DNA of 64,000 nt from a virus (lineage: Duplodnaviria; Heunggongvirae; Uroviricota; Caudoviricetes). Positions 15,178-64,000 of the stretch are shown here, piece after piece. Location of the stretch: positions 24,332 to 88,331 of the IMG/VR virus record IMGVR_UViG_3300042946_000144; one strand, 5' to 3'. Under the pieces are notes generated by a model. That model was not told where the DNA came from, ran no database searches, and saw only the letters and a program-made list of their open reading frames with translations. The position numbers and the translations under genes are program-made. Position 1 is the stretch's first letter. Each line of letters opens with the position of its first letter.

Positions 15178-15905
15178 TATTTTCCGTTTGGTGCATTACT
15201 AGCCTGTCCATCCACTCCATCATCAGTCATATCTGTTTTAACTTGGAAGTATGTAGACAGGAGTTTTTTAGATGTTAGTTCCAACACTTGACTTTCCAGG
15301 TAACCAGGAAGTGCGAAGTCTTTGTCTAAAGGATTCTTGCACCATTCCTCATTGGTGGGCTGTGGTGTACCACAATCACATTCAGGATACATCACCTCAT
15401 TAGGAACATCTTGTTCGAAGAATGCAGAAATTCTAATTGCATGCATTAATGGGTTGCTTATGTATAAGTAACCATTCATAATCCAATAGTAATGTTCCTT
15501 CTTGATTATTGGGAGCTTAAGAAGATTTACATATCTATTCACTGTAATCTCTTTGAACTTTGTTCCCATTCCTCCCATAGCATTGATTGAATAAACTCCC
15601 TGTATAACATACTGATAATTTCCTTCAGAAATGCGAGGGAGCTTGTATCTACTTCTTGCTATTGTGCATTCATCAACATATTCACAACATTCAGAAATAG
15701 GAACTTCCACCATCTCCAAACAGGGAATGGTGGTAAATAGTGTGTTAGTTGCCCAAAGTTTTCTTAGGTTTGTTTCTCGTTTTACAAGAAGAAGGGTGTT
15801 GTTTCTGATCTCAGAAGCAATCACTCTGTCTGTGATTAGACTGTCTGTAGAAAGCAACTTGTGCATGCTACGTACATCTGAAACAAGTTTTCTAAGTGTT
15901 GACAT
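15177..15905 (-). CDS. hypothetical structural protein (242 aa)
   Basis: ORF in the operon; Cys-containing. Confidence 0.5.
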   Translation of the reverse strand: MSTLRKLVSDVRSMHKLLSTDSLITDRVIASEIRNNTLLLVKRETNLRKLWATNTLFTTIPCLEMVEVPISECCEYVDECTIARSRYKLPRISEGNYQYVIQGVYSINAMGGMGTKFKEITVNRYVNLLKLPIIKKEHYYWIMNGYLYISNPLMHAIRISAFFEQDVPNEVMYPECDCGTPQPTNEEWCKNPLDKDFALPGYLESQVLELTSKKLLSTYFQVKTDMTDDGVDGQASNAPNGK

Positions 15906-17176
15906 TATAAATACTGTTTGAATATATTTGTCATACCATCAAGCAGATCTATCATAAATGCTGTCACTTCTCCTTTAGAGCATGTGTAGCCATTTTTATC
16001 ATCCCATTGACTCTTAGCATTTGAGAATGCTGGGATTTGATAGAACTTGATTCCGTTAAAGTCTTGAGATAACTCATGATGTTTATCTCCTGTAAAGATG
16101 TAATAGTTGTTATGATTTGACCATCCATCTTTAAATTCCATAGGGAATATTCCTGCGAGCTTTGAAGGTTTGATAGCATCTCCGTGGTTAAACATCATTG
16201 CTGATGATCCGTAGGAAATGTACTTCCTATACTTAGGACTGTCATCAAATTTTAATCGAGAATTGCTTCTAAAAAACGTTGATAACCAATTAATTAGATG
16301 CCATCCTACAAACTCATCATGGTTCCCTGGTACATATATCACTTCAACTTCCCTGGAAGATTGAAGCATCAGTGTTATCATTCTAATCTCATGTTCACAA
16401 ACCATTCTGAATGATTCCTGATAAGATGTAATATTTGTTTGAGGAGTTCCTTTTGTTGTGGCATTTGTCCACTCACTGTTAAACTCATCAGAACCAATTA
16501 CATATACAATCTGATCGAGGTTGTTTGACAATCTTGCTTGAGAGATGATTGTTTCTGTCTTCTCAATGATTTTTGCAAATCTATCCTCCATGTTATTCTC
16601 ACCATCAACATCATGTTTGTTTAGGTGAGCATCTTGTTTGTTGATAACAAGACAACCATACGGTTTAACTGGCTCTATCTTAGGAAGCATTATGTCCTGA
16701 GAAGCTGGTTGATATTCCTTTAGAAACTCAACAAACACATCTTGGAACACTTGTTCTGTAGATTTCTTATTGAGCCAAGCTTTAACCTGCCAGTGTGGTG
16801 TAGAACTATTTCCCCAATAGTTCTGTACATATTTTGTAATTTCCCATTTAGAAGTGTCAATGTTACACTTCTCAATAAGATCGTCTAAACTTCTAATTTC
16901 ATTAGGGGTATTTAGAACAATCTCCCCAGTGCCCCTGGAGAGATCTTCCTCATACTTTACAATCCTTTCTTCTAGATCACCTATGTAATTAGCTGCTTCA
17001 GCCTCATTATTCAAACTTTCTCGATGTTTCAATTCCTTCATAAGCACTTCAACATCTTCTTCTGTGGTTCCTAGCTTTTCAGCATAGAACTTTTTACTCT
17101 TTTTCCACTGTAACATTTGTTCCAGCTGGAAGAGTAAATGCTGGTTGTTTGACATATGTAGTTTGTTTATTGTCAT
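15905..17176 (-). CDS. calcineurin-like metallophosphoesterase with N-terminal coiled-coil
   Basis: Motif series QDAHLNKHD (DxH), VIGSDEF (GDxxD variant), VPGNHDEF (GNHD/E), NHGD and GDKHHE. Confidence 0.55.
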   Translation of the reverse strand: MTINKLHMSNNQHLLFQLEQMLQWKKSKKFYAEKLGTTEEDVEVLMKELKHRESLNNEAEAANYIGDLEERIVKYEEDLSRGTGEIVLNTPNEIRSLDDLIEKCNIDTSKWEITKYVQNYWGNSSTPHWQVKAWLNKKSTEQVFQDVFVEFLKEYQPASQDIMLPKIEPVKPYGCLVINKQDAHLNKHDVDGENNMEDRFAKIIEKTETIISQARLSNNLDQIVYVIGSDEFNSEWTNATTKGTPQTNITSYQESFRMVCEHEIRMITLMLQSSREVEVIYVPGNHDEFVGWHLINWLSTFFRSNSRLKFDDSPKYRKYISYGSSAMMFNHGDAIKPSKLAGIFPMEFKDGWSNHNNYYIFTGDKHHELSQDFNGIKFYQIPAFSNAKSQWDDKNGYTCSKGEVTAFMIDLLDGMTNIFKQYL

Positions 17177-44904: not shown

Positions 44905-45216
44905 ATGATTCCATGTATCTGCATCAATGACAAAAACCGTCCTAAGGAGATTCCTGTTAACAAATGGATTAAAGAAGGACAGGAATATCATGTTATATAC
45001 ACTGTTTGGAGCATTCCTTCTAATACATTAGGGCTGCATTTAGATGAAATATGGTTGGATGATTGCTGTTTTCCATATGAATTCTTCAAAGCAGATAGGT
45101 TTGCTTTTACAGAGGAGAATCTTAAGCTCCTTATAGAGCTAATTAAAGACTGTAACGATACAGATTTCTCAATGGATGAGATATTAAAACAAACAACGCT
45201 TGAAGAAGCCTCTTAA
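44905..45216 (+). CDS. hypothetical Cys-containing protein (103 aa)
   Basis: ORF. Confidence 0.4.
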   Translation: MIPCICINDKNRPKEIPVNKWIKEGQEYHVIYTVWSIPSNTLGLHLDEIWLDDCCFPYEFFKADRFAFTEENLKLLIELIKDCNDTDFSMDEILKQTTLEEAS

Positions 45217-45601
45217 AACAAACAAAATGAACTATTACGTATTTCCAGGATTAAAGCGTACAATTGATCCAAGTAGTGGTCCATTGTGCAAGCGAGGGAA
45301 GATTTCCACAGAAGAGGTTATAAAGATTGTTGCTAAAAGCTGTAATGTCACGGTTGATGATATAAGATCAAACATGAGACGTGAAAATATAGTGGAAGCA
45401 AGACATATAACCTGTGGTGTCCTTAGAAACGAGTTTGATTATTCCCTCAAGTTTATAGGAGATGTTATGGGTGGTAAACACCACACCACTATAATACATT
45501 CAATTAGAACCTTCAGAGATAGATATAAGGTTTATAATGATTACAAACAGCTTGTAGATGGTGTAACAAACGAAATAAAGGTGTATATTGCATGCAATTA
45601 A
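45200..45601 (+). CDS. DnaA domain-IV-like HTH DNA-binding protein
   Basis: RRENIVEARHITCGVLRNEFDYSLKFIGDVMGGKHHTTIIHSIRTFRDR resembles the DnaA C-terminal HTH (..AR..AMYL...T..SL..IG..FGGRDHTTV.HA..KI). Confidence 0.55.
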   Translation: MKKPLKTNKMNYYVFPGLKRTIDPSSGPLCKRGKISTEEVIKIVAKSCNVTVDDIRSNMRRENIVEARHITCGVLRNEFDYSLKFIGDVMGGKHHTTIIHSIRTFRDRYKVYNDYKQLVDGVTNEIKVYIACN

Positions 45602-46976: not shown

Positions 46977-47186
46977 ATGATTGGCGTTCTCAAAAAAAGA
47001 GGTGAAGAATGGTTTGTAGCAACTGTTCTTTACAATTCAGCTTGGTCAAACTACTATCCTACACACCCTGACCACAATTTATGGTTGAAGATTTGGGGAA
47101 AGGATGGCCAAAAGGTTTTATTTGAGATTGTAAACAAAACACACGTTAAACTAAAAGAATTATGCAATGAAGGTTGTGATGTATGA
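46977..47186 (+). CDS. hypothetical protein (about 69 aa)
   Basis: ORF 46884..47186; likely internal start MIGVLKK after the upstream stop. Confidence 0.3.
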   Translation: MIGVLKKRGEEWFVATVLYNSAWSNYYPTHPDHNLWLKIWGKDGQKVLFEIVNKTHVKLKELCNEGCDV

Positions 47187-49122
47187 CATAGAGACCCTTA
47201 AGGAATATTTCTTAGTGGTCGCATTAGTTCCTCAGGAACCATATAGAGTTTTTAAGGTTAATAAAGACCAGAACAGCTTAGATGCTTTCATCAATTTTAC
47301 AAAGGAATATCAAGATTACTATTGGGTGGGGTATAACAACCTAAGGTTTGACTCTCAGGTGATTGAGTGGATTATTAGGAACAATGAGAATTGGCATGAG
47401 CTTTCAAGCTTAGATATTACATCTAGAATACATCAGAAAGCACAAGATGTGATACATGATGCTAATTATGATGTATTTCCTGAATACAGAGAATCAGATC
47501 TTTCCTTGAAACAGCTCGATCTATTTAAAATACACCACTATGACAATAAGAACAGACGAGTGAGTTTAAAAAGACTTGAGTTTGAAATGGATCTTGAGAA
47601 CATTGAAGAGATGCCCATAGATCATAACAAAACAGGTATGACTGATGAAGAAATAATCCTCACTACAGAATACTGTTTGAACGATGTTTGGGCTACTTAT
47701 CAGTTCTATCTTGTAACAATTGGTGAAACAGAACATCCTTTATATAAAGGAAACAACCAGATTGAGCTCAGAATGGATATACAGGAAGAATTTGGTATTC
47801 CCTGTTTAAACTATTCAGATAGTAAGATTGGTGATGAGATGATTAAGAAGTATTATTGTATAGAAAAGGGAATAGACTACAAAGAACTTCCCAAGAAAGG
47901 ATTCTTCAGGAAGGATATTAAGATTAAACACTGTATAGCACACTATGTTGAATTCGAAACACCTGAACTAAAGAAGTTCCTTTCTGATATAAGTAAGAAA
48001 ACACTCACAATGAGTGATGATTTTAAAGAAGATTTACATTTTTATGACAACATTTATGCATTCGCAAAGGGTGGGCTACATACAGAAAATGGTCCAAAGG
48101 TGTTTGAGGCTGATGATGAACACTTCATTATTGATTGGGACGTTAGCTCATACTATCCTGCTATCATCATTAATAACGGTAAGTATCCCTATCATTTGGG
48201 TAAGGAATTCCTTGCTGGATATAAGAAGATGTTTGAGAAAAGGCTAGAACTGAAACCCTTAGCTAAGAAAGACAAGAAGATCAAAGGTATTGTTGGTGCT
48301 CTAAAGCTTGCTGTAAACTCTGTTTATGGTAAATCTTCTGACATGCAATCCTGGATTTATGACAGACAACTTACAATGTTCACCACTATAACAGGAGAAC
48401 TTTCTCTGTTAATGCTCATTGAGAAATATGAACTTGCTGGTATAAAAGTTATTTCTGCTAATACAGATGGTGTCACTATTCGCATTCATAAAGACAAACT
48501 CGAAAAGATGTTTGAGATTAATAAATGGTGGTGCAAAGCGACACAATATGAGCTAGAACGTGCTGATTATCAGAAGATTATATTCTCAACGGTGAACGAT
48601 TATTTAGCAATTAAAACTGATGGAGATGTTAAAAAGAAAGGTGATTTCCTCACAGACTTTGAATTACATAAAAACAAGTCTGCGTGTATTGTTCCTATTG
48701 CCCTTGAGCATTATTTTGTTAGCGGTGTTCCTATTGTGGACACTATTAGAACTCACTCTAATATTTTTGATTTCTGTCTTAGACAAAAGTCTTCCAGGGA
48801 CTTTCACTATGAAGGAATCAATAGAAGAACTGGAGAAACCACAGTATACCACAAACTTATCAGATACTACATATCTCAACAAGGAGAAAAACTCCTGAAA
48901 GTGAAGAATGAAGATTCTGACAGTGGTGCAGCTAATGTTTCTCAAGTGGAAGCAGGTGAATGGCTAGCAACAGTGTGTAATCATCTTACCAAGGATCATC
49001 CAATGGACAACATCAACTATGAATATTACATAGAGAGAGCAAATAAGATAGTCCACAAGATTGAAACAGAAGGTAAGAAGAGAAAAGTTATTGTTAACCC
49101 AAATCAAATGTCACTATTCTAA
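47167..49122 (+). CDS. polB: family B DNA polymerase with 3'-5' exonuclease (compact, 651 aa)
   Basis: Exo I YDIET, Exo II YNNLRFD, Exo III YCLNDVWATY. Motif A DWDVSSYYPAII, motif B KLAVNSVYGK, motif C ISANTDGV. Confidence 0.8.
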   Translation: MKVVMYDIETLKEYFLVVALVPQEPYRVFKVNKDQNSLDAFINFTKEYQDYYWVGYNNLRFDSQVIEWIIRNNENWHELSSLDITSRIHQKAQDVIHDANYDVFPEYRESDLSLKQLDLFKIHHYDNKNRRVSLKRLEFEMDLENIEEMPIDHNKTGMTDEEIILTTEYCLNDVWATYQFYLVTIGETEHPLYKGNNQIELRMDIQEEFGIPCLNYSDSKIGDEMIKKYYCIEKGIDYKELPKKGFFRKDIKIKHCIAHYVEFETPELKKFLSDISKKTLTMSDDFKEDLHFYDNIYAFAKGGLHTENGPKVFEADDEHFIIDWDVSSYYPAIIINNGKYPYHLGKEFLAGYKKMFEKRLELKPLAKKDKKIKGIVGALKLAVNSVYGKSSDMQSWIYDRQLTMFTTITGELSLLMLIEKYELAGIKVISANTDGVTIRIHKDKLEKMFEINKWWCKATQYELERADYQKIIFSTVNDYLAIKTDGDVKKKGDFLTDFELHKNKSACIVPIALEHYFVSGVPIVDTIRTHSNIFDFCLRQKSSRDFHYEGINRRTGETTVYHKLIRYYISQQGEKLLKVKNEDSDSGAANVSQVEAGEWLATVCNHLTKDHPMDNINYEYYIERANKIVHKIETEGKKRKVIVNPNQMSLF

Positions 49123-51313: not shown

Positions 51314-51525
51314 CAGCAAAAGAAAAAGCAAAAGATTTGTATAACAAAATGATTGTTGATTTTACAATAGACAAATGGCAATCTAAACAATGTGCATTAG
51401 TAGCAGTAGATGAGATAATAAAATCAAATCCAACATCTGAACTTTCAAACCCATTCTTAGGTAATAGAACTTATGAAAATGTTAACTATTGGAAGGATGT
51501 AAAAAAAGAAATAGAAAGCCTATGA
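51310..51525 (+). CDS. hypothetical protein (71 aa)
   Basis: ORF. Confidence 0.4.
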   Translation: MTAKEKAKDLYNKMIVDFTIDKWQSKQCALVAVDEIIKSNPTSELSNPFLGNRTYENVNYWKDVKKEIESL

Positions 51526-52583
51526 GTTTTGAACAATTAAAAGCAGCTGTACAAGATGGTCTCGATGGGAGAAACAGTGGTATTCCTATGGGGTTCAATA
51601 GATTGAACAAGTATATAGGAATCAGGAAAAGCATGTATTTCCTTGTAGGTGGGCTTACAGGTTCAGGTAAGACATCCTTTATAGATGATGCATTTGTTTT
51701 GAACCCTTTTGACTGGTATATCATGCAGAAAGACCCAAAAATCAAATTGCGAATGATATATCGTTCAATGGAGCGGTCTAGAACATACAAGCTAGCAAAA
51801 TGGGTGAGCAGAAAGATCTTCTTAGATCACGGTGTAATTGTTCCTGTTCCCAAGATGTTAGGTTGGACAGAGAAGATGACCAAGGATGAGCATGATCTGT
51901 TCTTAATGTATGAAGATTATATGGGACAAATGGAAGAGGTTATTACAATCATCGATGGTCCAGAGAATGCTGTAGGTGTAGCCAAAGAACTAAAAGCACA
52001 TGCTTTACAGAACGGAAGGATTGAACAGATTGATGAATACAACAAGGTGTATGTTCCCAATAATGAGAATGAAGTGACTATTGTAGTTATAGACCACATA
52101 GGTCTTTTAAAAACCACAAAAGACCAGCCTTCTAAAAAGGAAGCTATTGATAAGATGAGTGATGAGCTCAGATATGCAAGAGATTTCTTTGGATATACAC
52201 CTGTAGCTGTTAGTCAGTTCAACAGATCTATTTCCAATCCTATGAGAATCAAGAATGGTGATGTAGAACCTCAATTGGAGGATTTTGCAGAGAGTTCCAG
52301 TACACAAAATGATGCAGACGTTGTATTAGCATTATTTGATCCTATGAGATATAAGGTGGCAGATCCATCAGGTTATGACCTAAACAAGCTAAAAGATCAA
52401 TTCGGAGCAAAGTATTTCAGGAGTCTTAGATTGATTAAGAATTCCTATGGAGAGGATGATGTGAGAATTGGTCTTGGTTTTATGGGTCAAATAGGTATGT
52501 TCAAAGAACTTCCTAAAAGAGCAGAAATGACAGACGCAGACTATGAATCTGTAACAAACAAATCTTTTTTTCTAAACCAATAA
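51522..52583 (+). CDS. DnaB-family (SF4) replicative helicase, RecA-like core only
   Basis: GIPMGFNRLNKYIG. H1 GGLTGSGKTSF, H2 IVVIDHIGLL, H3 SQFNRS, H4 RIGLGFMGQ. Start at the ATGA-coupled Met 51522. Confidence 0.8.
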   Translation: MSFEQLKAAVQDGLDGRNSGIPMGFNRLNKYIGIRKSMYFLVGGLTGSGKTSFIDDAFVLNPFDWYIMQKDPKIKLRMIYRSMERSRTYKLAKWVSRKIFLDHGVIVPVPKMLGWTEKMTKDEHDLFLMYEDYMGQMEEVITIIDGPENAVGVAKELKAHALQNGRIEQIDEYNKVYVPNNENEVTIVVIDHIGLLKTTKDQPSKKEAIDKMSDELRYARDFFGYTPVAVSQFNRSISNPMRIKNGDVEPQLEDFAESSSTQNDADVVLALFDPMRYKVADPSGYDLNKLKDQFGAKYFRSLRLIKNSYGEDDVRIGLGFMGQIGMFKELPKRAEMTDADYESVTNKSFFLNQ

Positions 52584-52753: not shown

Positions 52754-52999
52754 ATGACAAGAGACGAGTATTTGGGTCTTAGGGGGTCAACTTCCTACAA
52801 CCTTCTCTATGAATATTATAGAGAGAAATATGACGGTTATAAGCATCAGCCATTCCTGGACTTCATGGAATTTGTAAAATTCATGCAAATGTGGCCAGCA
52901 ATAAGAGGTGCTTATGACAAAGTGTTGGACTATTATGATGAAAAATTCAATGTCACAGTGTTAAAAGACAAAGAAGGAAACACAATAGGATATTCATGA
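52754..52999 (+). CDS. hypothetical protein (81 aa)
   Basis: ORF. Confidence 0.4.
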   Translation: MTRDEYLGLRGSTSYNLLYEYYREKYDGYKHQPFLDFMEFVKFMQMWPAIRGAYDKVLDYYDEKFNVTVLKDKEGNTIGYS

Positions 53000-54072
53000 A
53001 GCAAGATGAATTACAACAAAAATTTATAGACGAAGGACTAAAGTTCTTTAAGAAAATCGACAGGGGGTATTATAACCTCGCAATGAGATTTGGTAAATGT
53101 AGGACCACCATTGAGCTTATGAAAAAGCTCCTGCGTAAGAATGAATGGGTGCTTATAGCCTATCCAGATAACAAGTTGAAACAAACTTGGATGGATGAGA
53201 TGGAGAAATGGGGATGGGATGATTCAATTAACGTAGAATATGTCAATTTTAGCTCTCTCAAGAAACATCTTGATGCTAAATATGACTTCTTTGTGATTGA
53301 TGAATTTCATTCTGCCTCAGAGAATGAGCGTGATTATGCTCATGTAATCCTTGAGAACTCCAAATACACCCTTGGCTTATCAGGAACTGTTAGTAATGAT
53401 ACAATAGCATTATGGGATCTTGCAGAGATAGCTTCTTATTCTACAGATCAGGGTATTCAGGATGGTATTCTTGCAGACTACCAAATATCTGTACATAGAG
53501 TGAACCTGGATACTATAGAAACAACAAAGGATAAGAAAGGAAAGCTCAAGACAGAGAAGCAGAGATATGATGGTTATACATGGGTGATTGAGAATCTTAA
53601 AAGACAGGGTGGGAACTTTATGCATCTAGCCCTTGCAAGAAACAGACTCTCCTTATCATCTATTGGAAAGATAAACCACGTAAAGAAGCTCCTTGAGAAG
53701 CTATCTGACAAACGAGTTTTGGTATTCACAGGACTTGCAAATGTTGCAGACAATTTAGGCATTCCCTCCTACCACAGCAAATCAAAAGATGATTCTGCCT
53801 ATCTGGAGTTCCAGAGTGGTAAACATAATCATTTAGCATTAGCTGCTATGGGTAAGGTGGGGGTTACATATACAGATCTAGATTCTGTTATTCTGCTAAA
53901 CTTTACATATAATGCAGAAGAAACATCTCAAATCCTGAACAGAGCTATCAAGCTTGATTACAAGAACAAGAAAGCAGACCTTCATGTAATATGTCTGAAC
54001 GAACTTCCAGAGCTCAAGAAAGTAAAAGAAAGCCTATCAATGTTAGACGAAAACAAAATCAAATATTTATGA
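52996..54072 (+). CDS. SF2 (DEAD/DEAH-like) helicase/ATPase with degenerate motifs
   Basis: Motif II FFVIDEFH, motif III LSGTV, weak motif I RFGKCRTT, weak motif VI QILNRAIK. Confidence 0.45.
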   Translation: MKQDELQQKFIDEGLKFFKKIDRGYYNLAMRFGKCRTTIELMKKLLRKNEWVLIAYPDNKLKQTWMDEMEKWGWDDSINVEYVNFSSLKKHLDAKYDFFVIDEFHSASENERDYAHVILENSKYTLGLSGTVSNDTIALWDLAEIASYSTDQGIQDGILADYQISVHRVNLDTIETTKDKKGKLKTEKQRYDGYTWVIENLKRQGGNFMHLALARNRLSLSSIGKINHVKKLLEKLSDKRVLVFTGLANVADNLGIPSYHSKSKDDSAYLEFQSGKHNHLALAAMGKVGVTYTDLDSVILLNFTYNAEETSQILNRAIKLDYKNKKADLHVICLNELPELKKVKESLSMLDENKIKYL

Positions 54073-54296: not shown

Positions 54297-54968
54297 ATGG
54301 CAAGCAAATTAATCGGGATTGTTGGCTCTACTGGTACAGGTAAGAGCACTTCAATCAAACATCTAGATCCAAAAGAAACCTACATTATTAACACAGCAAA
54401 GAAAGAACTTCCCTTTAAAGGAGCAGACAAACTTTACAACGCAGAAAGCAAAAATTACAAGGAGGTAGATGAAATTACAGAGATTACACGTTTATTAAAA
54501 ACGATCTCTGAGAAAGCCCCACACATCAAAACTATTGTTATCGAGGATAGCAATTACATGATGTCCTTTCGTATGGCTGATAAAGCTACAGAAGTGGGAT
54601 ATACAAAGTTCACCATTCTTGCAAAAGATATGGTGGAATTATTTAGAGAAGCTCGTAAGCTTCGTGATGATCTCAAGATATTCTACTTTACACATCCAGA
54701 GATTATAGAGGATGGTGGTGAGATCGTTGGATATAAGATGAAAACATCAGGTAAGATGTTAGATAATCAAATCAATTTAGAAGGTCTCTTCACAATATGC
54801 TTATATACACATGTTGAAGAGGCAAAGGATGGAACTGCTACATACAATTTTGTAACAAACCGCTTTAAAAAATATCCTGCTAAAAGTCCAGACGGTATGT
54901 TTGATGAAATCAAGATACCAAACAACTTGCAAATTGTAGTGGATACAATCAACAACTATTATAATTAA
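54297..54968 (+). CDS. P-loop NTPase (AAA/Sak4-like or kinase-like)
   Basis: Walker A IVGSTGTGKST; Walker B-like IVIEDSN. Confidence 0.5.
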   Translation: MASKLIGIVGSTGTGKSTSIKHLDPKETYIINTAKKELPFKGADKLYNAESKNYKEVDEITEITRLLKTISEKAPHIKTIVIEDSNYMMSFRMADKATEVGYTKFTILAKDMVELFREARKLRDDLKIFYFTHPEIIEDGGEIVGYKMKTSGKMLDNQINLEGLFTICLYTHVEEAKDGTATYNFVTNRFKKYPAKSPDGMFDEIKIPNNLQIVVDTINNYYN

Positions 54969-55877: not shown

Positions 55878-55910
55878 GATCCCCTGCAGAGATGTGGGGG
55901 ATCTTTTTTT
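55878..55910 (+). terminator. rho-independent terminator
   Basis: GATCCCC-11nt loop-GGGGATC followed by TTTTTTT. Confidence 0.75.
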
Positions 55911-55923
55911 ATATCTTTATAAC

Positions 55924-56922
55924 ATGATAACAGGCAAAAAGAAAACAGTATTAACTACAGAAACTGTCCTTCAAAAAGTTACAGAATATGACATATTTAG
56001 ATGGTACATGCCTGATAAAAGTTGGAAGATCAACCAAGTTACATTCTCACCTTTCAGGAATGAGAGAAATCCTTCCTTCATAATAGGAAATAAGCATGGT
56101 AGATTGTCTTTTATAGATTTTGGTGACACAAGCAGAAGAGGAGACTGTTTCTCTTTTGTCAAGATGTTATACAATCTCTCTACAATAGATGATGTTCTCA
56201 AGATGATTGATCGTGATTTTGGTCTTGGTATACATGGTGCTCCTACAGGAGAATACAAAAGAGTTGTAGCTGAATACAAACAACCTGAGGAAAGCAAAAG
56301 ATATTCCTTAATACAGGTTAAGACACGTAAGTTCACTCAAGAGGAATTAGCTTATTGGAACCAGTATCACCAGGATATACAAGATCTCAGAGATAACAAC
56401 ATCTATTCTGTAGACAAACTCTATCTAAACAAACAAAGGTTCCCTATAAAGGATAATGAACTTAGGTTTGGTTATTTCTATGATGGACATTGGAAGATTT
56501 ACAGACCGTTTGCTGATAAGAAGAATAAATGGATGCCTAATAATGTTCCCATTACAGCAATGGATGGACTTAAGGACATAGAGCACTGCAGAATAGCCTT
56601 CATCAACAAGAGTAAGAAAGATTATATGGTGATGAAGAAGATTTTTCCTTGCTGCTGTGCTGTTCAGAATGAGGGACTGGGATGTTTCTCTACAGAGAAC
56701 GTTCAATATCTCAAGGACAATTCTGACATCCAAATCCTATCCTTTGATGCAGACTCTACAGGAGTGACAAACTCCCAACAAATCACCAAACTGTTTGACT
56801 TTGGTTATTGTAATGTTCCAAGATCCTATGTGAAAGAAGGAATTAAAGACTGGGCTGATCTTGCAAAAGCACATGGTCTGAAAGCTATTGAGGATTATTT
56901 GATAGAAAAAGAACTGTTATGA
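55924..56922 (+). CDS. DnaG-like primase (TOPRIM) with Cys-less zinc-ribbon-like motif
   Basis: FSPFRNERNPSF resembles CPFHxEKTPSF. TOPRIM ILSFDADSTG and EGLGCFS glutamate. The upstream ATG 55894 lies inside the terminator stem. Confidence 0.55.
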   Translation: MITGKKKTVLTTETVLQKVTEYDIFRWYMPDKSWKINQVTFSPFRNERNPSFIIGNKHGRLSFIDFGDTSRRGDCFSFVKMLYNLSTIDDVLKMIDRDFGLGIHGAPTGEYKRVVAEYKQPEESKRYSLIQVKTRKFTQEELAYWNQYHQDIQDLRDNNIYSVDKLYLNKQRFPIKDNELRFGYFYDGHWKIYRPFADKKNKWMPNNVPITAMDGLKDIEHCRIAFINKSKKDYMVMKKIFPCCCAVQNEGLGCFSTENVQYLKDNSDIQILSFDADSTGVTNSQQITKLFDFGYCNVPRSYVKEGIKDWADLAKAHGLKAIEDYLIEKELL

Positions 56923-57072
56923 CAATTAACCAGCTTATAGACAAAATAAAAGACAACGCTGAGTGGTTACAGACCACAGAAGGAGATGAAATAGAGTGTA
57001 TATCTATGGAGAATCTCCAAGAAATTTTACAAAAGTATTTTAAACTAGAATTAAACTTAAAAACAGATGACT
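56920..57072 (+). CDS. small protein (50 aa)
   Basis: Manual ORF MTINQLIDKIKDNAEWLQTTEGDEIECISMENLQEILQKYFKLELNLKTDD. Confidence 0.3.
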
Positions 57073-57849
57073 GACAACACTTATTCAATGGCAAAAGGAC
57101 TTCTCATTAATGCAGAACTCCCACAACAAACACGTACATACAAGCCTATTAGCCATCAACAATTGATGGACCTCACCCTGGAAAGTATATATCAAGCAGG
57201 GTTTGAATTAGATCAAGAGATATATTCAGGAGCAAGAGATGGTCAGATTGGTAATGGTAGATACACAATCAAGAATGTAGCTGATTCAGAAATGCAATTG
57301 CAGATTGGCTGGCAGAATTCCTATGACAAGAGTCTTTCTCTGAAGTTTGCTATTGGTACACGCATATTCATTTGTCAAAATGGTTGTGTATCAGGAGACT
57401 TTGGTACATTCAAAAAGAAACACAAAGGTGATGTACAAGAATTCACCCCATCAGCTATTACAGAATATATCAGAAGAGCAGGAGATGTGTTTCAGCAAAT
57501 TCAGAAAGACAAAGAGGGAATGAAGCAAATCGAGATGACTAAGCGTACATCTGCTGAAATCATCGGTAGAATGTTCCTTGAAGAAGAAATCATCCAGAGC
57601 ACACAGTTAAACATCATCAAGAGAGAGATGGATAATCCTTCTTTTGATTATGGTGCTGATGGATCTATGTGGCAGCTGTACAACCACACCACATTAGCTA
57701 TGAAGGAATTACATCCTTCTTTATGGATGAACAACCACATGAAAGCACATTCATTCTTTGTAAAAGAAAGTGGATTATTTGTTCCTAATAGCGAAATCAC
57801 TGTTCCTGAGGAAGGGCAGCTTACACAACTTGAATTATTCACCAATTAA
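57067..57849 (+). CDS. DUF932-family (phage/plasmid-like, TIGR03299-type) protein
   Basis: QNSYDKSLSLKFAIGTRIFICQNGCV resembles the NSHDGS...R.VC.NG core. Confidence 0.5.
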   Translation: MTDNTYSMAKGLLINAELPQQTRTYKPISHQQLMDLTLESIYQAGFELDQEIYSGARDGQIGNGRYTIKNVADSEMQLQIGWQNSYDKSLSLKFAIGTRIFICQNGCVSGDFGTFKKKHKGDVQEFTPSAITEYIRRAGDVFQQIQKDKEGMKQIEMTKRTSAEIIGRMFLEEEIIQSTQLNIIKREMDNPSFDYGADGSMWQLYNHTTLAMKELHPSLWMNNHMKAHSFFVKESGLFVPNSEITVPEEGQLTQLELFTN

Positions 57850-57860
57850 AAACCAATAAA

Positions 57861-58133
57861 ATGGCTACAAAAAAAGCGAAAGCACCAAAGACAATTACAT
57901 TAGTAAAGAAGCAACCTGCTTTAACAAAAACTCAGATTGAAGAACTACGTACGATTGCCCTCTATTTAGGAGAAATCAGACGTAAGTTATACAATTTAGA
58001 AGATGAATCAGAAAGTCTGTCTAAAGTGATGTTCAATGTAGGTATGATCTTTAAGGTGGCAGATCAGGCAGAAGATAGGTTGAATGACTTTATTGAAGAA
58101 ATTGAACCAACTGATCATGAACTAAACTTTTAA
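57861..58133 (+). CDS. hypothetical coiled-coil protein (90 aa)
   Basis: ORF. Confidence 0.4.
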   Translation: MATKKAKAPKTITLVKKQPALTKTQIEELRTIALYLGEIRRKLYNLEDESESLSKVMFNVGMIFKVADQAEDRLNDFIEEIEPTDHELNF

Positions 58134-58135
58134 TT

Positions 58136-58855
58136 ATGATTTGGGAGAAATTCAAGGATAACTTTCACGAAAGCTGGCATGCTAAAATGCAACCCTTTAT
58201 TGAAAGTGAGGAGTGTGATAAGATTTATGAATTTCTAAAGTCAGAAAGCAAGAGGGGTAAGAAGATTGCCCCTCTTTCTTCTGATGTTTGGAGATGTTTT
58301 AAAGAAACACCTCTCACAGATCTGAAGGTGATAATGATTGGGATGTGCCCATATCATACAGAAAGAAACGGAGAACCTGTAGCTGATGGTCTTCTTATGG
58401 GCTGTAGTAAAACAGGAAAACTCCAACCTTCTCTAGAGCAATTCTATGGAGGAATAGAAAGAGAACTACACGATGGATTACATCTTACATATGACAAAAC
58501 ACCTGATGTTTCCTATCTAGCGAAACAAGGTGTGCTTATGATGAACGCTGCTCTCACTACAGAGATAAACAAAGCAGGTTCACACATTGCCCTCTGGGAA
58601 CCATTAGTTAAATATCTGTTTGAACACGTGTTTCAGTATGAAGGAGCACCTATTGTGTTCCTTGGAAAGGATGCAGCTAAGTATAAGAAGCTTGTTAGTC
58701 CTCTTTCCTGGTCATTTGTTGTAACACATCCAGCATCTGCAGCATATAAACAAACAGAATGGGATACAGAGGGTGTATTTGGTAAGGTGAATAGGATTTT
58801 AAAAGACAACAACAATTTCACAATTAGCTGGTTGGATGAACCAGCCCCATTTTAA
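58136..58855 (+). CDS. uracil-DNA glycosylase family-1-like protein with altered catalytic motif
   Basis: [28 protein letters not shown] aligns with Ung [38 protein letters not shown] aligns with [20 protein letters not shown] aligns with HPSPLS. The catalytic QD is replaced by MC. Confidence 0.6.
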   Translation: [239 protein letters not shown]

Positions 58856-58867
58856 ATCACTAAAAAC

Positions 58868-59260
58868 ATGAGAACATTAAAGTATGGGGGACAATTGTCT
58901 CCAGGAGATTTTATTGCCGTAGCTTATTCCAATCATATAGACTTTGGTTGGTATTTTGGGAATGGTATAAACCAAACCTTACAATACTACTCACTTCGTT
59001 ATCCAAAAGCTGCATATGAAAGATATCAAGACTTCAAAGCAAAGCTTGATGGAGGAATAACTACTTCCGCCTATGAAGCAAAGAGATATAGCAACGGTTT
59101 TACAATTAAGTGTATGTACAAATCCTATATAAATGCTGTACATGCTACAAGAGTGATGAAAGTTACAAATCCAGAAGATATATTCATAGAACAACAAGAT
59201 AGAGAAGACTACGAAAAATCAAAAGAAGCACTAATTACATTAAATTTCATTAAAAAGTAA
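58868..59260 (+). CDS. hypothetical protein (130 aa)
   Basis: ORF. Confidence 0.4.
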   Translation: MRTLKYGGQLSPGDFIAVAYSNHIDFGWYFGNGINQTLQYYSLRYPKAAYERYQDFKAKLDGGITTSAYEAKRYSNGFTIKCMYKSYINAVHATRVMKVTNPEDIFIEQQDREDYEKSKEALITLNFIKK

Positions 59261-59265
59261 GCAAA

Positions 59266-61605
59266 ATGATTTTAGAAAAACAAACAGAAGCACTGGTTCA
59301 ACAAGAAGGAACCTCACAAGAATCAATCGGTATGTCACTTGACTTAGATTCTGCACAGATATTGATGCAGATGTTAAGTAAGAATCTCTATTCAGATTCA
59401 ATAGGCTCTACTGTCAGAGAATGTGCATCTAATGCATTAGACAGTCATAGAAGAGCTGGTGTTGACAAACCAATCGTTGTGTCTTTTAAGCCAAATGAAG
59501 CTAATAACTATGAATTCTCTGTAGAGGATTTTGGTATAGGCTTAGATGCAGATGATGTAAAGAACATCATTAGTAAGTATGGTAAGAGTACAAAGCGTGA
59601 TTCAGCTACAGAATTAGGTATGATGGGCTTGGGTTTCAAAGCTCCTTTAGCTTATAGTTCTTCGTTCTATTTCGTATGTCGTAAAGATGGTATGGAGCGT
59701 AAGTATATGATGTACGAAGGAGAAGATACAAACACCATCGACTTGTTGTATGAGAAACCAACCACAGAAGGTAATGGTGTAAAGGTGATTGTTCCTGTTA
59801 ACTATTATGACAGAAGAGAGTTTCACAGTAAGATTAGTGAGCAGCTTGCTTATTTCGAGAGTGTGTATTTCGATGTACCTGGAGTGATAGACAATGATTT
59901 CCAGATAGTTAGAAGTGAACACTTCCAATTCTCAACTCTTGCTTCAGATAGCAAAATGCACATCTGCTTGGACAATGTGTACTATCCTCTGGAGTTTGAT
60001 AAGGTTGGAATGAGCAACACCATACATTTCCCTGTAGGTTTGAGATTTAGTCTTACAGATGGCATATTCCCTACACCAAACAGAGAATCAATTCGTTACA
60101 CCAAAGAAGCTAAGGAGATTATTCTCAAGAAGATAGCTATGGTGGCTGATTACATGGTTAGTAAGTATAATGAGTCTATTATTGAGACAGACAACATAAT
60201 AGAAATCATGAACTATTATTCCAGTGATGCTAGAAATCTTGAGTTTGCCAGTGGTAGATATGATATTGCCGAACTTTCTAACTATGCTACAATCAAGGTG
60301 GCTGAACCAAAGTTGAAAGGTATTAATGTCCTAAATCTCAGATTGCTCCACAAGAATAGAGATTTTATTCTGAAGGAATATCAGGTGAGATACAGAATCG
60401 ATGGTGGTAAATTCAGAGAGTGTAAGAACTATTGGAATCAAGATCTGAAGATCCGTGATATGACCAAAGATAGACACTTCTTGCTGGAAGATAAACTGAC
60501 TGGTAAGAAGAAAGAATATCTGAGAGAAACAATGGGCAAGGATACAGGATGGGGAAAGAATAAGTTCCTAATCAAGAAGGTTAAAGAGTTTAAGCTTGGT
60601 AAACCAAATGCTTCTACAAACTATGAAACTTATATGGATCTTCTTGGTTTGAGAAAGATTCAGAAACATCTCTGGAGAGCTGCTATCAAAGAGTTTCAAT
60701 CTATTGTAGGTATGTACATCGATTGTCTTACAAAAATTGATGACATAAAGATTCCTGATGGCTGGGTTGACAGCAAGAAGAGAGCAAAGATTATCATCTC
60801 TGGAGGAACAATAGGTCCAAAAGCAAGGAGAGTTAAACTCAAAGGAGAAATTGTTGTAAAGCTTGCTACAACTCTTGAAAGATGGGTGGATGGTAAGAAC
60901 TGTAAATGGGTTCCTACAACATACAATCTAGAGAGTCTTCACAAATCTCCACATTTGACAGTTTATGCATCTCAGAACGAGACAGATACAAAACTAATGG
61001 ATGGTCTTTTCAAGATTACATATGGTATATCTAAGACCAAGATCAATTTTGTAGCTGCTTCTGAGAGAGAACTGAAGAACCTTGAGAAACTTGAATTGCA
61101 CAACTGGATAAAACTTGAAACATTTATGGAAGGGAAGAATAAACCATTCAAAAGAATTGTCACTGCATATCTGATTAAAGAGTTAACTGATAAATATAGT
61201 GACACTTTTCAGAAGAGTGCTAAATTGAAGCCTCTGTCAGAAGATCTTGCAAACAAGATTGAACTACTTGATTCATATAGAGATGATCATTACATTTCCT
61301 CTATAGATGCAGTTCATAAAGCTATGTTAGCTGTGGCAGAGGAGAACAATCTGTTTGATGGTGAAATCTATCCCATCTATAAGGAAGTCAAGGCTTTCTT
61401 GAATAGATATTCATTTGTTGACACCATCCTTGATAAAATTTCTTATTATGAAAAGGATGATAACCCTATGATGGACGTGTTGAGAGACATGTTGAAATAT
61501 CATAGAAGAAGACTCGACTGGAAGAACTACAACATAAAACTCAACGATGATGTAGTTAAGACAGAACTTACAGAGGAATTAGTAGAAGATTTATTAGAAG
61601 ATTAA
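59266..61605 (+). CDS. GHKL-ATPase-domain protein, rIIA-like
   Basis: N box RECASNALDSH, G1 EDFGIGLD, G2 ELGMMGLGFKAPLAYSS. 779 aa. Followed by a partner gene as in rIIA/rIIB pairs. Confidence 0.5.
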   Translation: MILEKQTEALVQQEGTSQESIGMSLDLDSAQILMQMLSKNLYSDSIGSTVRECASNALDSHRRAGVDKPIVVSFKPNEANNYEFSVEDFGIGLDADDVKNIISKYGKSTKRDSATELGMMGLGFKAPLAYSSSFYFVCRKDGMERKYMMYEGEDTNTIDLLYEKPTTEGNGVKVIVPVNYYDRREFHSKISEQLAYFESVYFDVPGVIDNDFQIVRSEHFQFSTLASDSKMHICLDNVYYPLEFDKVGMSNTIHFPVGLRFSLTDGIFPTPNRESIRYTKEAKEIILKKIAMVADYMVSKYNESIIETDNIIEIMNYYSSDARNLEFASGRYDIAELSNYATIKVAEPKLKGINVLNLRLLHKNRDFILKEYQVRYRIDGGKFRECKNYWNQDLKIRDMTKDRHFLLEDKLTGKKKEYLRETMGKDTGWGKNKFLIKKVKEFKLGKPNASTNYETYMDLLGLRKIQKHLWRAAIKEFQSIVGMYIDCLTKIDDIKIPDGWVDSKKRAKIIISGGTIGPKARRVKLKGEIVVKLATTLERWVDGKNCKWVPTTYNLESLHKSPHLTVYASQNETDTKLMDGLFKITYGISKTKINFVAASERELKNLEKLELHNWIKLETFMEGKNKPFKRIVTAYLIKELTDKYSDTFQKSAKLKPLSEDLANKIELLDSYRDDHYISSIDAVHKAMLAVAEENNLFDGEIYPIYKEVKAFLNRYSFVDTILDKISYYEKDDNPMMDVLRDMLKYHRRRLDWKNYNIKLNDDVVKTELTEELVEDLLED

Positions 61606-61680: not shown

Positions 61681-63213
61681 ATGAGCAAATTTCTCAGCAT
61701 GCAGTGGTTCAAAAGCAAGATCGAACACGCAGTAGAAAAAGTGATTACAAGTAAGATTGAAGATTTGATGGAACAAGAAGACAATGATACAGTTCCTGAG
61801 TTTAGAGATCCTCTTAACATTAGAAAGCCCTATCTAACTGTCAAAAGAGTGAATGATGTATTGACTATAGTTATGAAGGATGGTGATATCCTTAGTAAAC
61901 CAAATTCTACAGATGATGACTTTATTAGAGCTAAGAATGCAAGAACAGAAGATGATCTGTATTCTATTGTAGCAACACCAGAAGTTATATCTGAAAGAAA
62001 GAACAGAGAAGCTGAATTGGTAAAATTGAGAGCTCTTCATCAGGGAATTGAGCAATTAGCAAATCTTCGTCAGTTCAGAGTGGAGGGTAATACAGTTTAT
62101 CTTACAGGGATTAACAGAAGTCTTCCTCAATTACTTGTAGAAAGATTCATCGAGATTGTATATCCTTATACAAACAATCCATATTTGTCTAACCAGGAAA
62201 TGTCTGATATCCTAGATTCTAATGATGATTTCTTAGCTCACAAGAGATTCTTCATGTGGTGCTGCCTGAATCCAAGAGCAGAAGTTGCAGATAGACTATA
62301 TGACTTCCTGAATAAGAATGGTATGAAGATTACAAAGCAAGGTTTCTTTGTTGCTCTTAGGAACATTGTTGTGGTACATGGTTCTGCACAGCTTGTAGAC
62401 TTTGTAAGTAATGCTTACAACAAGGTGAAAGCTGTATGGAAAAAGTCTCCTGATAACTACACTGTATTCCTGGAAGATGGTGAGTACAAGCTGGTTCACA
62501 ATGATGATCTAGAGAGAACAGAAATGATGGAATGTGAAATGTGTAATGGTGAAGGAGAATGGTGGAATGAAGAAGCTTCAGAATATGGTGATGAGCCAGG
62601 ATATGAAACATGTTACAACTGTGATGGTACGGGAGAACATGAAGCCACTATACTTATTAACCACGGTGAGAGAATTGGTGGATTAACAGAGCTCTATCTC
62701 GATCTTCCTAACAGACATGAGAATAGATATACAGACAACTGGACCAAGACATTTGATATTCGTGTTGGTCAGGTGGTGAGTATGCCTATTGAAGATTGTA
62801 ACTGGTCTACACAAGACTGTGCTACAGCAGGATTACACTTTGCTGGTCATACAGCTCCATATGTATTGTGTGGTGATACAACTGTATTTACCTTGCACAA
62901 TCCTATGAAGGTTGTAGGTATTGGTGAAGAGAAAGGTAGATGCTACGAATATCTTCCATTCATGACTACAAACATCGAGGAAGCTGATGAGATTATGAAC
63001 TCACGTGATTTTGATTTCTTACAGCTGGATGAGCAATATGCTATCAACGAACTTCAAAGTCTTGAAGAGAAAGTGAAAGCAGGCTTTGCTGCAGAGGCTA
63101 AGAAGTATGATTTCAATTTACCACACATCAGTGCTTCAGAGATCAAGAACATTGTTGCTTCTCTGGAGGATATGCGTAGTGAGATTGCTAACAGAGTCAA
63201 CCACATTGACTAA
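61681..63213 (+). CDS. 510-aa protein (rIIB-like partner candidate) with DnaJ-type CxxCxGxG zinc finger
   Basis: CEMCNGEGEWW...CYNCDGTGEHE. Position after the GHKL gene. Confidence 0.45.
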   Translation: MSKFLSMQWFKSKIEHAVEKVITSKIEDLMEQEDNDTVPEFRDPLNIRKPYLTVKRVNDVLTIVMKDGDILSKPNSTDDDFIRAKNARTEDDLYSIVATPEVISERKNREAELVKLRALHQGIEQLANLRQFRVEGNTVYLTGINRSLPQLLVERFIEIVYPYTNNPYLSNQEMSDILDSNDDFLAHKRFFMWCCLNPRAEVADRLYDFLNKNGMKITKQGFFVALRNIVVVHGSAQLVDFVSNAYNKVKAVWKKSPDNYTVFLEDGEYKLVHNDDLERTEMMECEMCNGEGEWWNEEASEYGDEPGYETCYNCDGTGEHEATILINHGERIGGLTELYLDLPNRHENRYTDNWTKTFDIRVGQVVSMPIEDCNWSTQDCATAGLHFAGHTAPYVLCGDTTVFTLHNPMKVVGIGEEKGRCYEYLPFMTTNIEEADEIMNSRDFDFLQLDEQYAINELQSLEEKVKAGFAAEAKKYDFNLPHISASEIKNIVASLEDMRSEIANRVNHID

Positions 63214-63268: not shown

Positions 63269-63667
63269 ATGGCTACAAAGAAAAAGAAGGCTGTTGCTAA
63301 ACCTAAGACACTGAAGACTAGAAATGCAGGCACTATGACAGAGTCTGCATTCTGGTCTTTTATTAGGAGTGGGTTGAGACAAAAGTCAAGATGGTGGAAA
63401 CCAATTACACAATGCAAGATGAACGCTCGAAGACCATATAAAGGTCCTAATAAGAGACAAAAGTTTGAATATCAATGCAATGTGTGTGATGGATGGTTTC
63501 CAGAAAAGAAAATAAACATTGACCATATCGTGCCTGCTGGTACATTAAGATGTGCAAATGACCTCCCAGGATTTGTAGAAAGACTATTCTGTGAAGAGGA
63601 CAATTTACAATGCATCTGTACTACATGCCATGATGCAAAAACAAAATCAGAAAAAGATGCAAAATAG
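63269..63667 (+). CDS. HNH endonuclease (free-standing, homing-type candidate)
   Basis: CNVCDGW...IDHIVPAGT...N...CTTCHDAKT (CxxC / DH / N / CxxCH). Lys-rich N-terminus. Confidence 0.7.
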   Translation: MATKKKKAVAKPKTLKTRNAGTMTESAFWSFIRSGLRQKSRWWKPITQCKMNARRPYKGPNKRQKFEYQCNVCDGWFPEKKINIDHIVPAGTLRCANDLPGFVERLFCEEDNLQCICTTCHDAKTKSEKDAK

Positions 63668-64000
63668 CGTAGAACTTTTAGGCTTCTATGGATCAGATGA
63701 GATTATAGCTTGTTCAGCATGGACTAGTACATCCAGAGAGCTTACAGATGATAAGAAGGAGCGTATTCCCAAGCTTATAAATATGCTTTGGTCAGAAGGA
63801 CATGAAACTCCTTTTGAAAAGGGAACAGTTCACTTTTTAGTAAACTGTGACATAGCGTCACACATTCATCTTCTTAAGCACAGGATAGCTTCTATTAATG
63901 CTGAAAGTGCTAGGTATAAAGAGCTAAAGGAAGATAAGTGTTATTTTCCTGCAGATTGGAAACAAATTTTAATTAAAGATGATGTGAATGGAAATACTTG
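63657..64000 (+). CDS. thyX: flavin-dependent thymidylate synthase ThyX (N-terminal part, continues beyond the window)
   Basis: KHRIASINAESARY matches the ThyX RHRxxSxxxxSxRY motif. Confidence 0.75.
   Translation, partial: MQNSVELLGFYGSDEIIACSAWTSTSRELTDDKKERIPKLINMLWSEGHETPFEKGTVHFLVNCDIASHIHLLKHRIASINAESARYKELKEDKCYFPADWKQILIKDDVNGNT

Follow-up and report, generated by a model that had tools for sequence, protein, structure and literature searches.

Each of the uracil-DNA glycosylase (UDG) families 2-6, as well as UdgX, has its own form of motif A, the water-activating loop (GINPG, GMNPG, GE(A/G)PG, GLAPA and others). UdgX of Mycobacterium smegmatis is of the family-4 type and contains an Fe-S cluster and an inserted loop, whose histidine forms a cross-link. 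Among viral UDGs, the D4 protein of vaccinia virus plays an essential, catalysis-independent role in the polymerase processivity factor; its motif A reads GIDPYP, with proline as the last residue, it has an HPAA-type loop without leucine, and it is devoid of the leucine wedge, the Pro-rich loop and the Gly-Ser loop (PMC1936997). UDGs occupy the template strand in front of viral polymerases (bioRxiv 10.1101/2025.03.26.645540), and the engineered human UNG D145N/H268N binds specifically to uracil-DNA without cutting it (PMC4756853). We report here a UDG-like gene from a 64,000-nucleotide stretch of phage DNA (hereafter the window: positions 24,332 to 88,331 of the IMG/VR record IMGVR_UViG_3300042946_000144, class Caudoviricetes). 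Its product resembles family-1 Ung, with a cysteine in place of the catalytic aspartate. We propose, with a probability of about 0.45, that it is an Ung derivative serving as a component of the replication module, where it would bind DNA or uracil at the replisome independently of catalysis, with no or strongly attenuated excision. The gene and its parts are as follows.

58136-58855, plus strand: UDG-like open reading frame (ORF), ATG start, TAA stop, 239 amino acids; family-1 Ung-like without the catalytic Asp
58340-58357, plus strand: motif A (water-activating loop), GMCPYH, residues 69-74, from the sequence and the alignments
58343-58348, plus strand: Met70-Cys71, codons ATG TGC, in place of Gln-Asp of GQDPYH; Pro72, Tyr73 and His74 kept
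58358-58384, plus strand: loop TERNGEPVA, residues 75-83, four residues longer than in Ung and crAss-like UDGs by the alignment gaps
58385-58405, plus strand: segment DGLLMGC, residues 84-90, aligned to HGLAFSV of E. coli Ung
58529-58546, plus strand: uracil-specificity strand GVLMMN, residues 132-137; Asn137 equals Asn123 of E. coli Ung and is kept
58727-58747, plus strand: motif B, HPASAAY, residues 198-204, aligned to HPSPLSA; His198 and Pro199 kept

By fold and collinearity, the window gene is a member of the UDG superfamily of the family-1 type. Pfam assigns its product to PF03167 (E-value 1.9e-6, above the gathering score), and phmmer retrieves from the PDB sequences 59 distinct family-1 UDGs, comprising bacterial Ung, human UNG and the herpesvirus, mimivirus and poxvirus D4/E4 proteins; the best match is Coxiella Ung (3tr7, E 1.3e-17), aligned over residues 26-234. 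In the phmmer alignments 'kvimigmcpyh' is set against 'kvvilgqdpyh'. All NCBIfam matches at E <= 0.01 are family-1 'ung' models, the best of them at E 1.1e-33; their equivalog cut-offs are missed (NF003592, 116.9 bits against 162; TIGR00628, 96.2 against 185.75). The AlphaFold2 model, built from 33 homologues, has a predicted local distance difference test score (pLDDT) of 84 and a predicted template modelling (TM) score of 0.86, and Foldseek matches it to the solved human, bacterial and herpesvirus UNG structures with TM 0.76-0.86 and probability 1.00. In PHROG, the protein belongs to phrog_12143 (E 2.9e-30), a family of 'unknown function'.

Across their full length, E. coli Ung, human UNG and herpesvirus UL2/BKRF3 are collinear with the window protein at 24-30% identity and share its fold. 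They have in common Gly-x-x-Pro-Tyr-His, the LLLN-type strand with its Asn, the Ser-His loop, the His-Pro of motif B and the serine of the Pro-rich loop. The window protein differs from them by the changes Asp to Cys, Gln to Met, Phe to Met and Leu wedge to Ala, and by a four-residue insertion after PYH. The three blocks that the initial annotation had aligned with family-1 Ung (GMCPYH/GQDPYH, GVLMMN/GVLLLN and HPASAAY/HPSPLSA) are recovered by both HMMER and MAFFT. On the alignment to UDG families 1-6 that it had suggested as a check, the NCBIfam, PDB sequence and fold matches are all of the family-1 type and none of families 2-6 or UdgX; as in family 1, Pro-Tyr follows the variable motif-A residue. 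The gene should not, for all that, be filed as the enzyme 'Ung': the motif-A Asp is missing, the equivalog cut-off is not reached, and motif B and the pocket set are only partly present.

GMCPYH is placed on GQDPYH by HMMER, by MAFFT in the company of E. coli Ung, vaccinia D4 and phage UDGs, and by an alignment of 150 sequences, which bears out the original reading of Gln-Asp replaced by Met-Cys. With the six canonical family-1 active-site residues taken from the motif table in PMC1936997, Asp64 of E. coli Ung becomes Cys71, Phe77 becomes Met88 and the wedge Leu191 becomes Ala202; Tyr66, Asn123 and His187 are kept as Tyr73, Asn137 and His198. Besides these, Gln63 is Met70, the DNA-backbone-gripping Ser189 and Ser192 are both Ala, the Gly-Ser loop is Gly-Lys, and Ser88 in the Pro-rich loop survives as Ser99. 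Met88 thus occupies the position of the uracil-stacking Phe77, and Cys90 of the same segment is found family-wide. The loop of residues 75-83 forms a small β-hairpin in the AlphaFold2 model (DSSP strands at residues 75-77 and 80-82), at a lower confidence (pLDDT 63-70).

None of the alignment methods places an aspartate inside motif A, a possibility that the initial annotation had itself raised against its reading. The nearest conserved one is Asp84, 13 residues downstream of Cys71 and aligned to His73 of E. coli Ung. As it is also present in 41 of the 54 relatives that still carry the catalytic Asp, it belongs to the family at large and does not represent the catalytic base in a new place; position 84 is acidic in 96% of the Asp-less group against 76% of the Asp-type relatives. 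A four-cysteine metal site including Cys71 was considered and rejected, since Cys90 is conserved in the Asp types and Cys27, Cys54 and Cys90 persist where residue 71 is Ser or Ala.

The protein-cluster search returned 1310 homologues at E <= 1e-3. In the best 120 of these matches, which are the nearest clusters (72-95% identity), the motif is GMCPYH without exception (120/120). The 49 related IMG/VR contigs, at 62-78% identity, have GMCPYH in 44 cases, GLCPYH in two, GTSPYH in two and GMAPYH in one, giving 46 Cys, two Ser and one Ala at the Asp site; the Met-Cys substitution is therefore common among related phages, as the initial annotation had asked. Both cysteine codons are used in the 44 GMCPYH contigs (TGT 29, TGC 15). 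GMAPYH in contig L041 and GTSPYH in L038 and L058, with chemically inert residues at the site, are found in intact, full-length ORFs, and the relatives with Ser or Ala include proteins with 66-68% identity to the query. GMAPYH is also seen, in the same synteny, in a 127-kb phage lineage represented by 26 contigs.

A HMMER search of 1.84 billion cluster representatives yielded 5816 relatives, of which the best 150 were analysed. The Asp-site residues of the 135 full-length 50%-cluster representatives are D (54), S (21), C (20), E (17), G (6), A (5), N (3), K (3), P (2), T (2), L (1) and V (1). Aspartate is thus kept in 40% of these more distant viral relatives, a figure that describes the viral neighbourhood and not all Ung homologues. 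The site ranks only 111th of 239 positions by conservation, while Pro72, Tyr73, Gly85, Asn137, His150, Trp154, Gly177 and Pro199 are nearly invariant; among 136 relatives, Pro72 is kept in 132, Tyr73 in 133, Asn137 in 130 and His198 in 117.

The Cys, Ser and Ala forms share the loop G-[LMYFI]-[CSA]-P-Y-H-[TS], and Thr/Ser75 and the four-residue insertion go with this subgroup, into which the window protein fits with G-M-C-P-Y-H-T, Met88, Asn137 and His198. Pooling gives 191 such sequences (Cys 114, Ser 64, Ala 13), with His74 in 170 (89%), Thr/Ser75 in 89%, Met88 in 76%, Asn137 in 99% and His198 in 97%; Tyr73, Asn137 and His198 are each kept in 97-99%. The 61 Asp forms, on the other hand, are mostly DPYP with Phe88, Pro74 being present in 36. 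These co-occurrence counts ignore shared ancestry; a neighbour-joining tree built from 137 sequences has short internal branches and a star-like shape. A GISPYH-type gene is found at 8001-8816 of L110 (JAWVHB010000183.1, a 150-kb contig), in a different phage background with many small ORFs, homing endonucleases and YopX, which indicates that the Asp-less type is not confined to the crAss-related lineage.

The UDGs of the cultured phages crAss001, DAC15, PhiCrAssBcn, FpV4 and phi14:2 belong to the same viral Ung-like family (26-35% identity) and have the same replication-module location. Most of these proteins from crAss-like and other Bacteroidota phages differ from the window clade, with its G-M-C-P-Y-H-T and Met88, by an Asp in GQDPYP; this is the motif of the crAss-like, DAC15 and FpV4 proteins. 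Other Asp-less variants occur in FPSV-S29 (GEEPYP) and phi14:2 (GKEPY, without the motif-B His). The Flavobacterium psychrophilum phages FpV4 (L007, 2989-3738) and FPSV-S29 (L009, 989-1732) are closely related and have GQDPYP and GEEPYP, respectively, which makes them a natural pair for judging the contribution of the Asp. In Cellulophaga phage phi14:2 (L008, KC821624.1), the gene at 2935-3645 is annotated 'uracil-DNA glycosylase', and its motif-B HP is changed to EDP alongside GKEPY. By its sequence, the phi14:2 protein is a candidate for a natural dead UDG in a growable crAss-like phage.

The UDG-like gene sits in a same-strand run of genes. Upstream of it, the order is family-B polymerase, DnaB, superfamily 2 (SF2) helicase, Sak4, a 289-residue protein, primase, DUF932 and a 90-residue ORF; downstream follow a 130-residue ORF, rIIA, rIIB, HNH and ThyX, with ribonucleotide reductase further on, past ThyX.

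47167-49122, plus strand: DNA polymerase family B (PHROG 1252, E 7e-140; TIGR00592 pol2, E 1.7e-7; weak Pol alpha match)
51489-52583, plus strand: DnaB-like helicase
52996-54072, plus strand: SF2 helicase (ResIII and Helicase_C)
54297-54968, plus strand: Sak4-like annealing protein (AAA_24)
55894-56922, plus strand: DnaG-type primase, adjoining or near the UDG-like gene in all relatives examined
57067-57849, plus strand: DUF932 protein; in most close relatives its gene immediately precedes the UDG-like one
57861-58133, plus strand: 90-residue ORF, its stop 2 nt before the UDG-like start; absent from 75%-identical relatives
58868-59260, plus strand: 130-residue ORF of unknown function, poorly conserved (about 40% identity in relatives)
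59266-61605, plus strand: rIIA-like gene, downstream of the UDG-like gene
61681-63213, plus strand: rIIB-like gene, downstream of the rIIA-like gene
63269-63667: HNH endonuclease, overlapping the ThyX start by 11 nt
63657-64000, plus strand: 5' part of the ThyX (Thy1) thymidylate synthase gene, running off the window; the window matches L064 with 100% identity along 732 nt

The polymerase carries the family-B motifs, namely the exonuclease motif YDIET, motif A DVSSYYP, motif B KLAVNSVYG, and NTDG. The order Sak4, one gene, primase, optional DUF932 and UDG-like gene recurs with the Cys types, with Ser (L111), with Ala (L109) and with Asp (FpV4, where it reads Sak4, two genes, primase and UDG). 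Over the 49 contigs, the median identity to the window is 70% for the UDG-like protein, against 73% for the primase, 77% for the polymerase, 78% for Sak4 and 80% for DnaB; it drops to 51% for rIIA and rIIB and to 40% for the 130-residue ORF. Between 33 sequences of 72-95% identity, 90 columns are invariant. Purifying selection on the UDG-like protein is strong, and its rate of evolution is about as low as that of the primase and the polymerase.

One related contig, L060 (IMGVR_UViG_3300010885_013346), has a UDG-like gene at 9155-9868 whose product is only 38% identical to that of the window; it reads GENPYN and has no DUF932 upstream. Its neighbours between 2473 and 14359 (DnaB, Sak4, the 289-residue protein, primase and rIIA) are 50-73% identical to those of the window; the comparison across contigs gives 64-73% for its neighbouring genes. 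From the sequence, an allele appears to have been replaced at a fixed locus, and such a divergent allele among similar neighbours suggests that active-site types are interchangeable there.

No conserved partner gene was found beside the UDG-like gene among the relatives compared. The 90-residue ORF was discarded for its absence from 75%-identical relatives, the 130-residue ORF for its conservation of about 40%, and DUF932 for its absence from L060, L109 and FpV4; the upstream genes of crAss phages are not homologous to those of the window. Gene fusions were also rejected as functional clues. The fusion of GIY-YIG with a UDG-like domain (P0138) resembles an inserted homing endonuclease, or else two genes joined by the gene call, and DegV with a UDG fragment (P0226) is likely chimeric. 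P0135, of 385 residues, begins with a NADAR domain that is followed by a UDG-like domain of the GLSPYH type; this singleton comes from a Logan contig of 1.3 kb, and a dedicated search gave no second fusion. In BFVD, a 723-residue 'NADAR domain protein' of Marseillevirus LCMAC103 (A0A481YV43) matches the fold of the window protein's model. It is possible that the NADAR fusion and fold match reflect a link to ADP-ribosylated DNA, chance or a gene-call artefact.

Taken together, the comparative data point to replisome binding by an Ung derivative. At the same locus of similar phages, the Asp site accepts D, E, N, C, S, A, G and others, while the protein is conserved like the core replication genes; this argues for a selected function that is independent of the carboxylate. 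The preserved uracil pocket indicates that base recognition probably still matters, and suggests that the protein binds uracil, just as the location in the replication module suggests that it binds the polymerase. Given that the Leu wedge, the two serines and the stacking Phe are lost and the pocket is kept, a binder with little or no excision is the most economical reading. Homology, fold, the substitution and its conservation, the family-wide variation of the Asp site, synteny and evolutionary rate are established by the comparisons; beyond these, we infer that the protein binds DNA or uracil, does not excise and associates with the polymerase. Mechanistically, the UDG-like protein would bind DNA, probably at template uracil, at the replisome, and Tyr73, Asn137 and His198 would recognise the flipped-out base. 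With the loss of the Asp carboxylate, which positions and activates the hydrolytic water, excision would be absent or much reduced. Like poxvirus D4/E4, the protein may assist the family-B polymerase of the phage, whether as an accessory factor, in processivity or in sensing uracil.

Indeed, by analogy the window protein would work most like poxvirus D4, though it is not a close relative. Both are viral Ung types encoded together with a family-B polymerase, both have no Leu wedge, and both have an HPAA-type motif B; the window gene lies inside the replication genes, in an order conserved in relatives. The final Pro of motif A in D4 (GIDPYP) is shared by the Asp-holding phage relatives (GQDPYP). 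However, D4 keeps Asp68 and Phe79 and is an active UDG, and its similarity to the window protein is weak and limited to the C-terminal half (E about 1e-4). The human UNG sensor D145N/H268N has in common with the window protein an Ung scaffold without the Asp; it is an artificial double mutant, whereas the window protein is natural and conserved, keeps its His and has more pocket changes. UdgX, which has the UDG fold and recognises uracil without turnover, is a precedent for a non-canonical outcome. Unlike UdgX, the window protein belongs to the family-1 type and lacks the cross-linking loop, and Ala can take the place of its Cys.

Several points weigh against replisome binding without excision. 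A pure scaffold needs no uracil pocket, yet the pocket is nearly invariant in the 191 Cys/Ser/Ala sequences. The Asp-less loop, with Met88 and the insertion, looks re-engineered rather than decayed, and would fit water activation assisted by His74. UDG families 2, 3, 5 and 6 are active without the motif-A Asp, those with Asn or Ala in motif A included. In addition, neither a bridging partner resembling A20 nor a homologue of it is recognisable, the small flanking ORFs are not conserved in relatives, and the 150 representatives are the most query-similar ones. It is possible, albeit less probable than replisome binding, that the protein excises uracil or a related pyrimidine: the small residue 71 would admit a water placed by His74 (with Thr75) or by another group, and His198 would stabilise the leaving base as in Ung, with a turnover that is perhaps slow, in the range of MUG/TDG. 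Residue 71 co-varies with residues 74 and 75 (His74 in 170 of 191 Cys/Ser/Ala forms, Pro74 in 36 of 61 Asp forms), Ser99 is retained, and the phage encodes ThyX and ribonucleotide reductase, implying that thymine-containing DNA is made and that uracil would be a lesion. A glycosylase that is slow, or activated in another way, would be compatible with the retained Tyr/Asn/His pocket and with the co-varying His74-Thr75. However, relatives may also have Gly, Pro, Lys, Thr, Leu or Val at the site, and some of them, such as phi14:2, have lost His198 as well; the wedge, two of the DNA-gripping serines and the stacking Phe are gone, and the co-variation is drawn from counts blind to shared ancestry, over a star-like tree.

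Cys71 could instead be a nucleophile, its thiolate capturing the oxocarbenium ion or the abasic C1' in a covalent intermediate, with a suicide cross-link similar to that of UdgX or a retaining, base-exchange reaction as the outcome. In the alignments, the Cys takes precisely the place at which the attacking water is held in Ung; it does not vary among the 120 nearest clusters, and both of its codons are used. His74 is three residues away and could complete a Cys-His pair, and UdgX is a UDG-fold protein that does cross-link to uracil-DNA. We regard this as very improbable nonetheless: Ala and Ser replace Cys within the same subgroup, in the same synteny and in intact ORFs, which makes thiol-specific chemistry unlikely, and no base-modification genes are seen beside the UDG-like gene. 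Covalent capture of the sugar by a Cys/Ser-His pair, a sub-case, is unlikely because of the Ala variants. Of the two functions offered by the initial annotation, a binding, non-excising protein would thus fit the comparative data better, and a different chemistry through the Cys thiol is disfavoured by GTSPYH and GMAPYH in intact close relatives and by the interchange of Cys, Ser and Ala (114/64/13).

A role in counter-defence, in which the protein would shield uracil or abasic sites from host Ung or nucleases, or act as a decoy that titrates a host factor targeting the Ung surface, seems improbable. NADAR enzymes reverse DNA ADP-ribosylation, and both the one NADAR fusion and the fold shared with the Marseillevirus protein would agree with such a role; so would the allele swap in L060, which resembles those of arms-race loci, and rIIA/rIIB just downstream, which are linked to exclusion systems in T4. 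Against this, the protein evolves as slowly as the primase and polymerase and far more slowly than rIIA/B and the small flanking ORFs, its position by the primase is conserved from FpV4 to the window phage, the fusion is a lone case on a short contig, and a scan of the PADLOC defence library gave no match for the gene. A phage Ung gene that has lost its function and is now decaying might be surmised from the loss of three of the six canonical active-site residues; this is already contradicted by the conservation data, since there are 1310 homologues, all ORFs are intact, the identity of about 70% is on a par with that of core replication genes, the Cys codon shows synonymous variation and the 90 columns are invariant.

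Replisome binding by the window protein may be one instance of something broader, although we hold this extension only tentatively: a large phage-specific radiation of Ung derivatives would have repeatedly given up the Asp and kept the pocket, producing uracil 'readers' or accessory subunits of the family-B polymerase replisome in crAss-related phages. If so, it would be the bacterial-virus counterpart of poxvirus D4/E4 and of uracil read-ahead by archaeal family-B polymerases, and its Cys/Ser/Ala-Pro-Tyr-His-Thr loop would serve as a switch designed to 'bind but do not cut', or else to 'cut very slowly'. The recruitment of the Ung fold as a non-repair part of the replisome, known from poxviruses and herpesviruses, would then extend to phages. 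Automatic pipelines (JGI names) call these proteins 'uracil-DNA glycosylase'; should the Asp-less forms bind without excising, this name misdescribes many genes, a large and abundant group in environmental phages. The natural series of Asp, Glu, Asn, Cys, Ser and Ala at one locus is a ready-made experiment on the contribution of the catalytic Asp, with FpV4, FPSV-S29, phi14:2 and crAss001 as cultured representatives, and it could provide natural uracil-DNA sensors to serve as reagents. Full-text searches found no literature on Asp-less phage Ung homologues, with incomplete coverage and hence as absence of evidence only. Non-repair roles of viral UDGs are an existing general idea; the variant described here offers a clear example, both widespread and open to testing, of a repair enzyme put to a different use.

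The source phage is uncultured and has a crAss-like layout, with a major head protein of about 500 residues, a portal of 865 and a terminase of 674. The terminase of Leptolyngbya phage Lbo-JY46 is the nearest from a cultured phage (40% identity), followed by those of Cellulophaga phages phi17:2 and phi4:1 (32%) and of crAss-like phages (26-30%). No near-identical DNA for the window is present in the phage collection searched; the related contigs measure 100-119 kb. One contig with a 70%-identical UDG-like gene, L066 (JBBAJS010000010.1, 111,986 bp), is binned in a metagenome-assembled genome of Sediminibacterium sp. (Bacteroidota), which is either a hint at the host or a mis-binned phage genome.

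Genes of the ThiF/E1-like type occur within a few genes of the UDG-like gene in L001 (4344-5198), L002 (999-2102) and L003 (1539-2294), all crAss-like, and in L109 (12029-12808), of the GMAPYH type; in L003 a metalloprotease-domain protein adjoins. The stretch of the window examined shows no ThiF gene. The overlap of HNH and ThyX is typical of homing endonucleases that adjoin genes of nucleotide metabolism. A 133-residue protein encoded shortly before the polymerase region (45200-45601, plus strand) contains the C-terminal helix-turn-helix domain of DnaA (PF08299, E 2.9e-19) and may be an origin-binding protein. A DNA repair exonuclease of 423 residues (15905-17176, minus strand; PHROG 704, E 6.7e-49) has its gene amid those for structural proteins, at a distance from the replication module and on the opposite strand. 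The structural region also holds two very large ORFs of 1518 and 1855 residues (2781-7337 and 8219-13786, both on the minus strand), reminiscent of the giant virion proteins of crAss-like phages.

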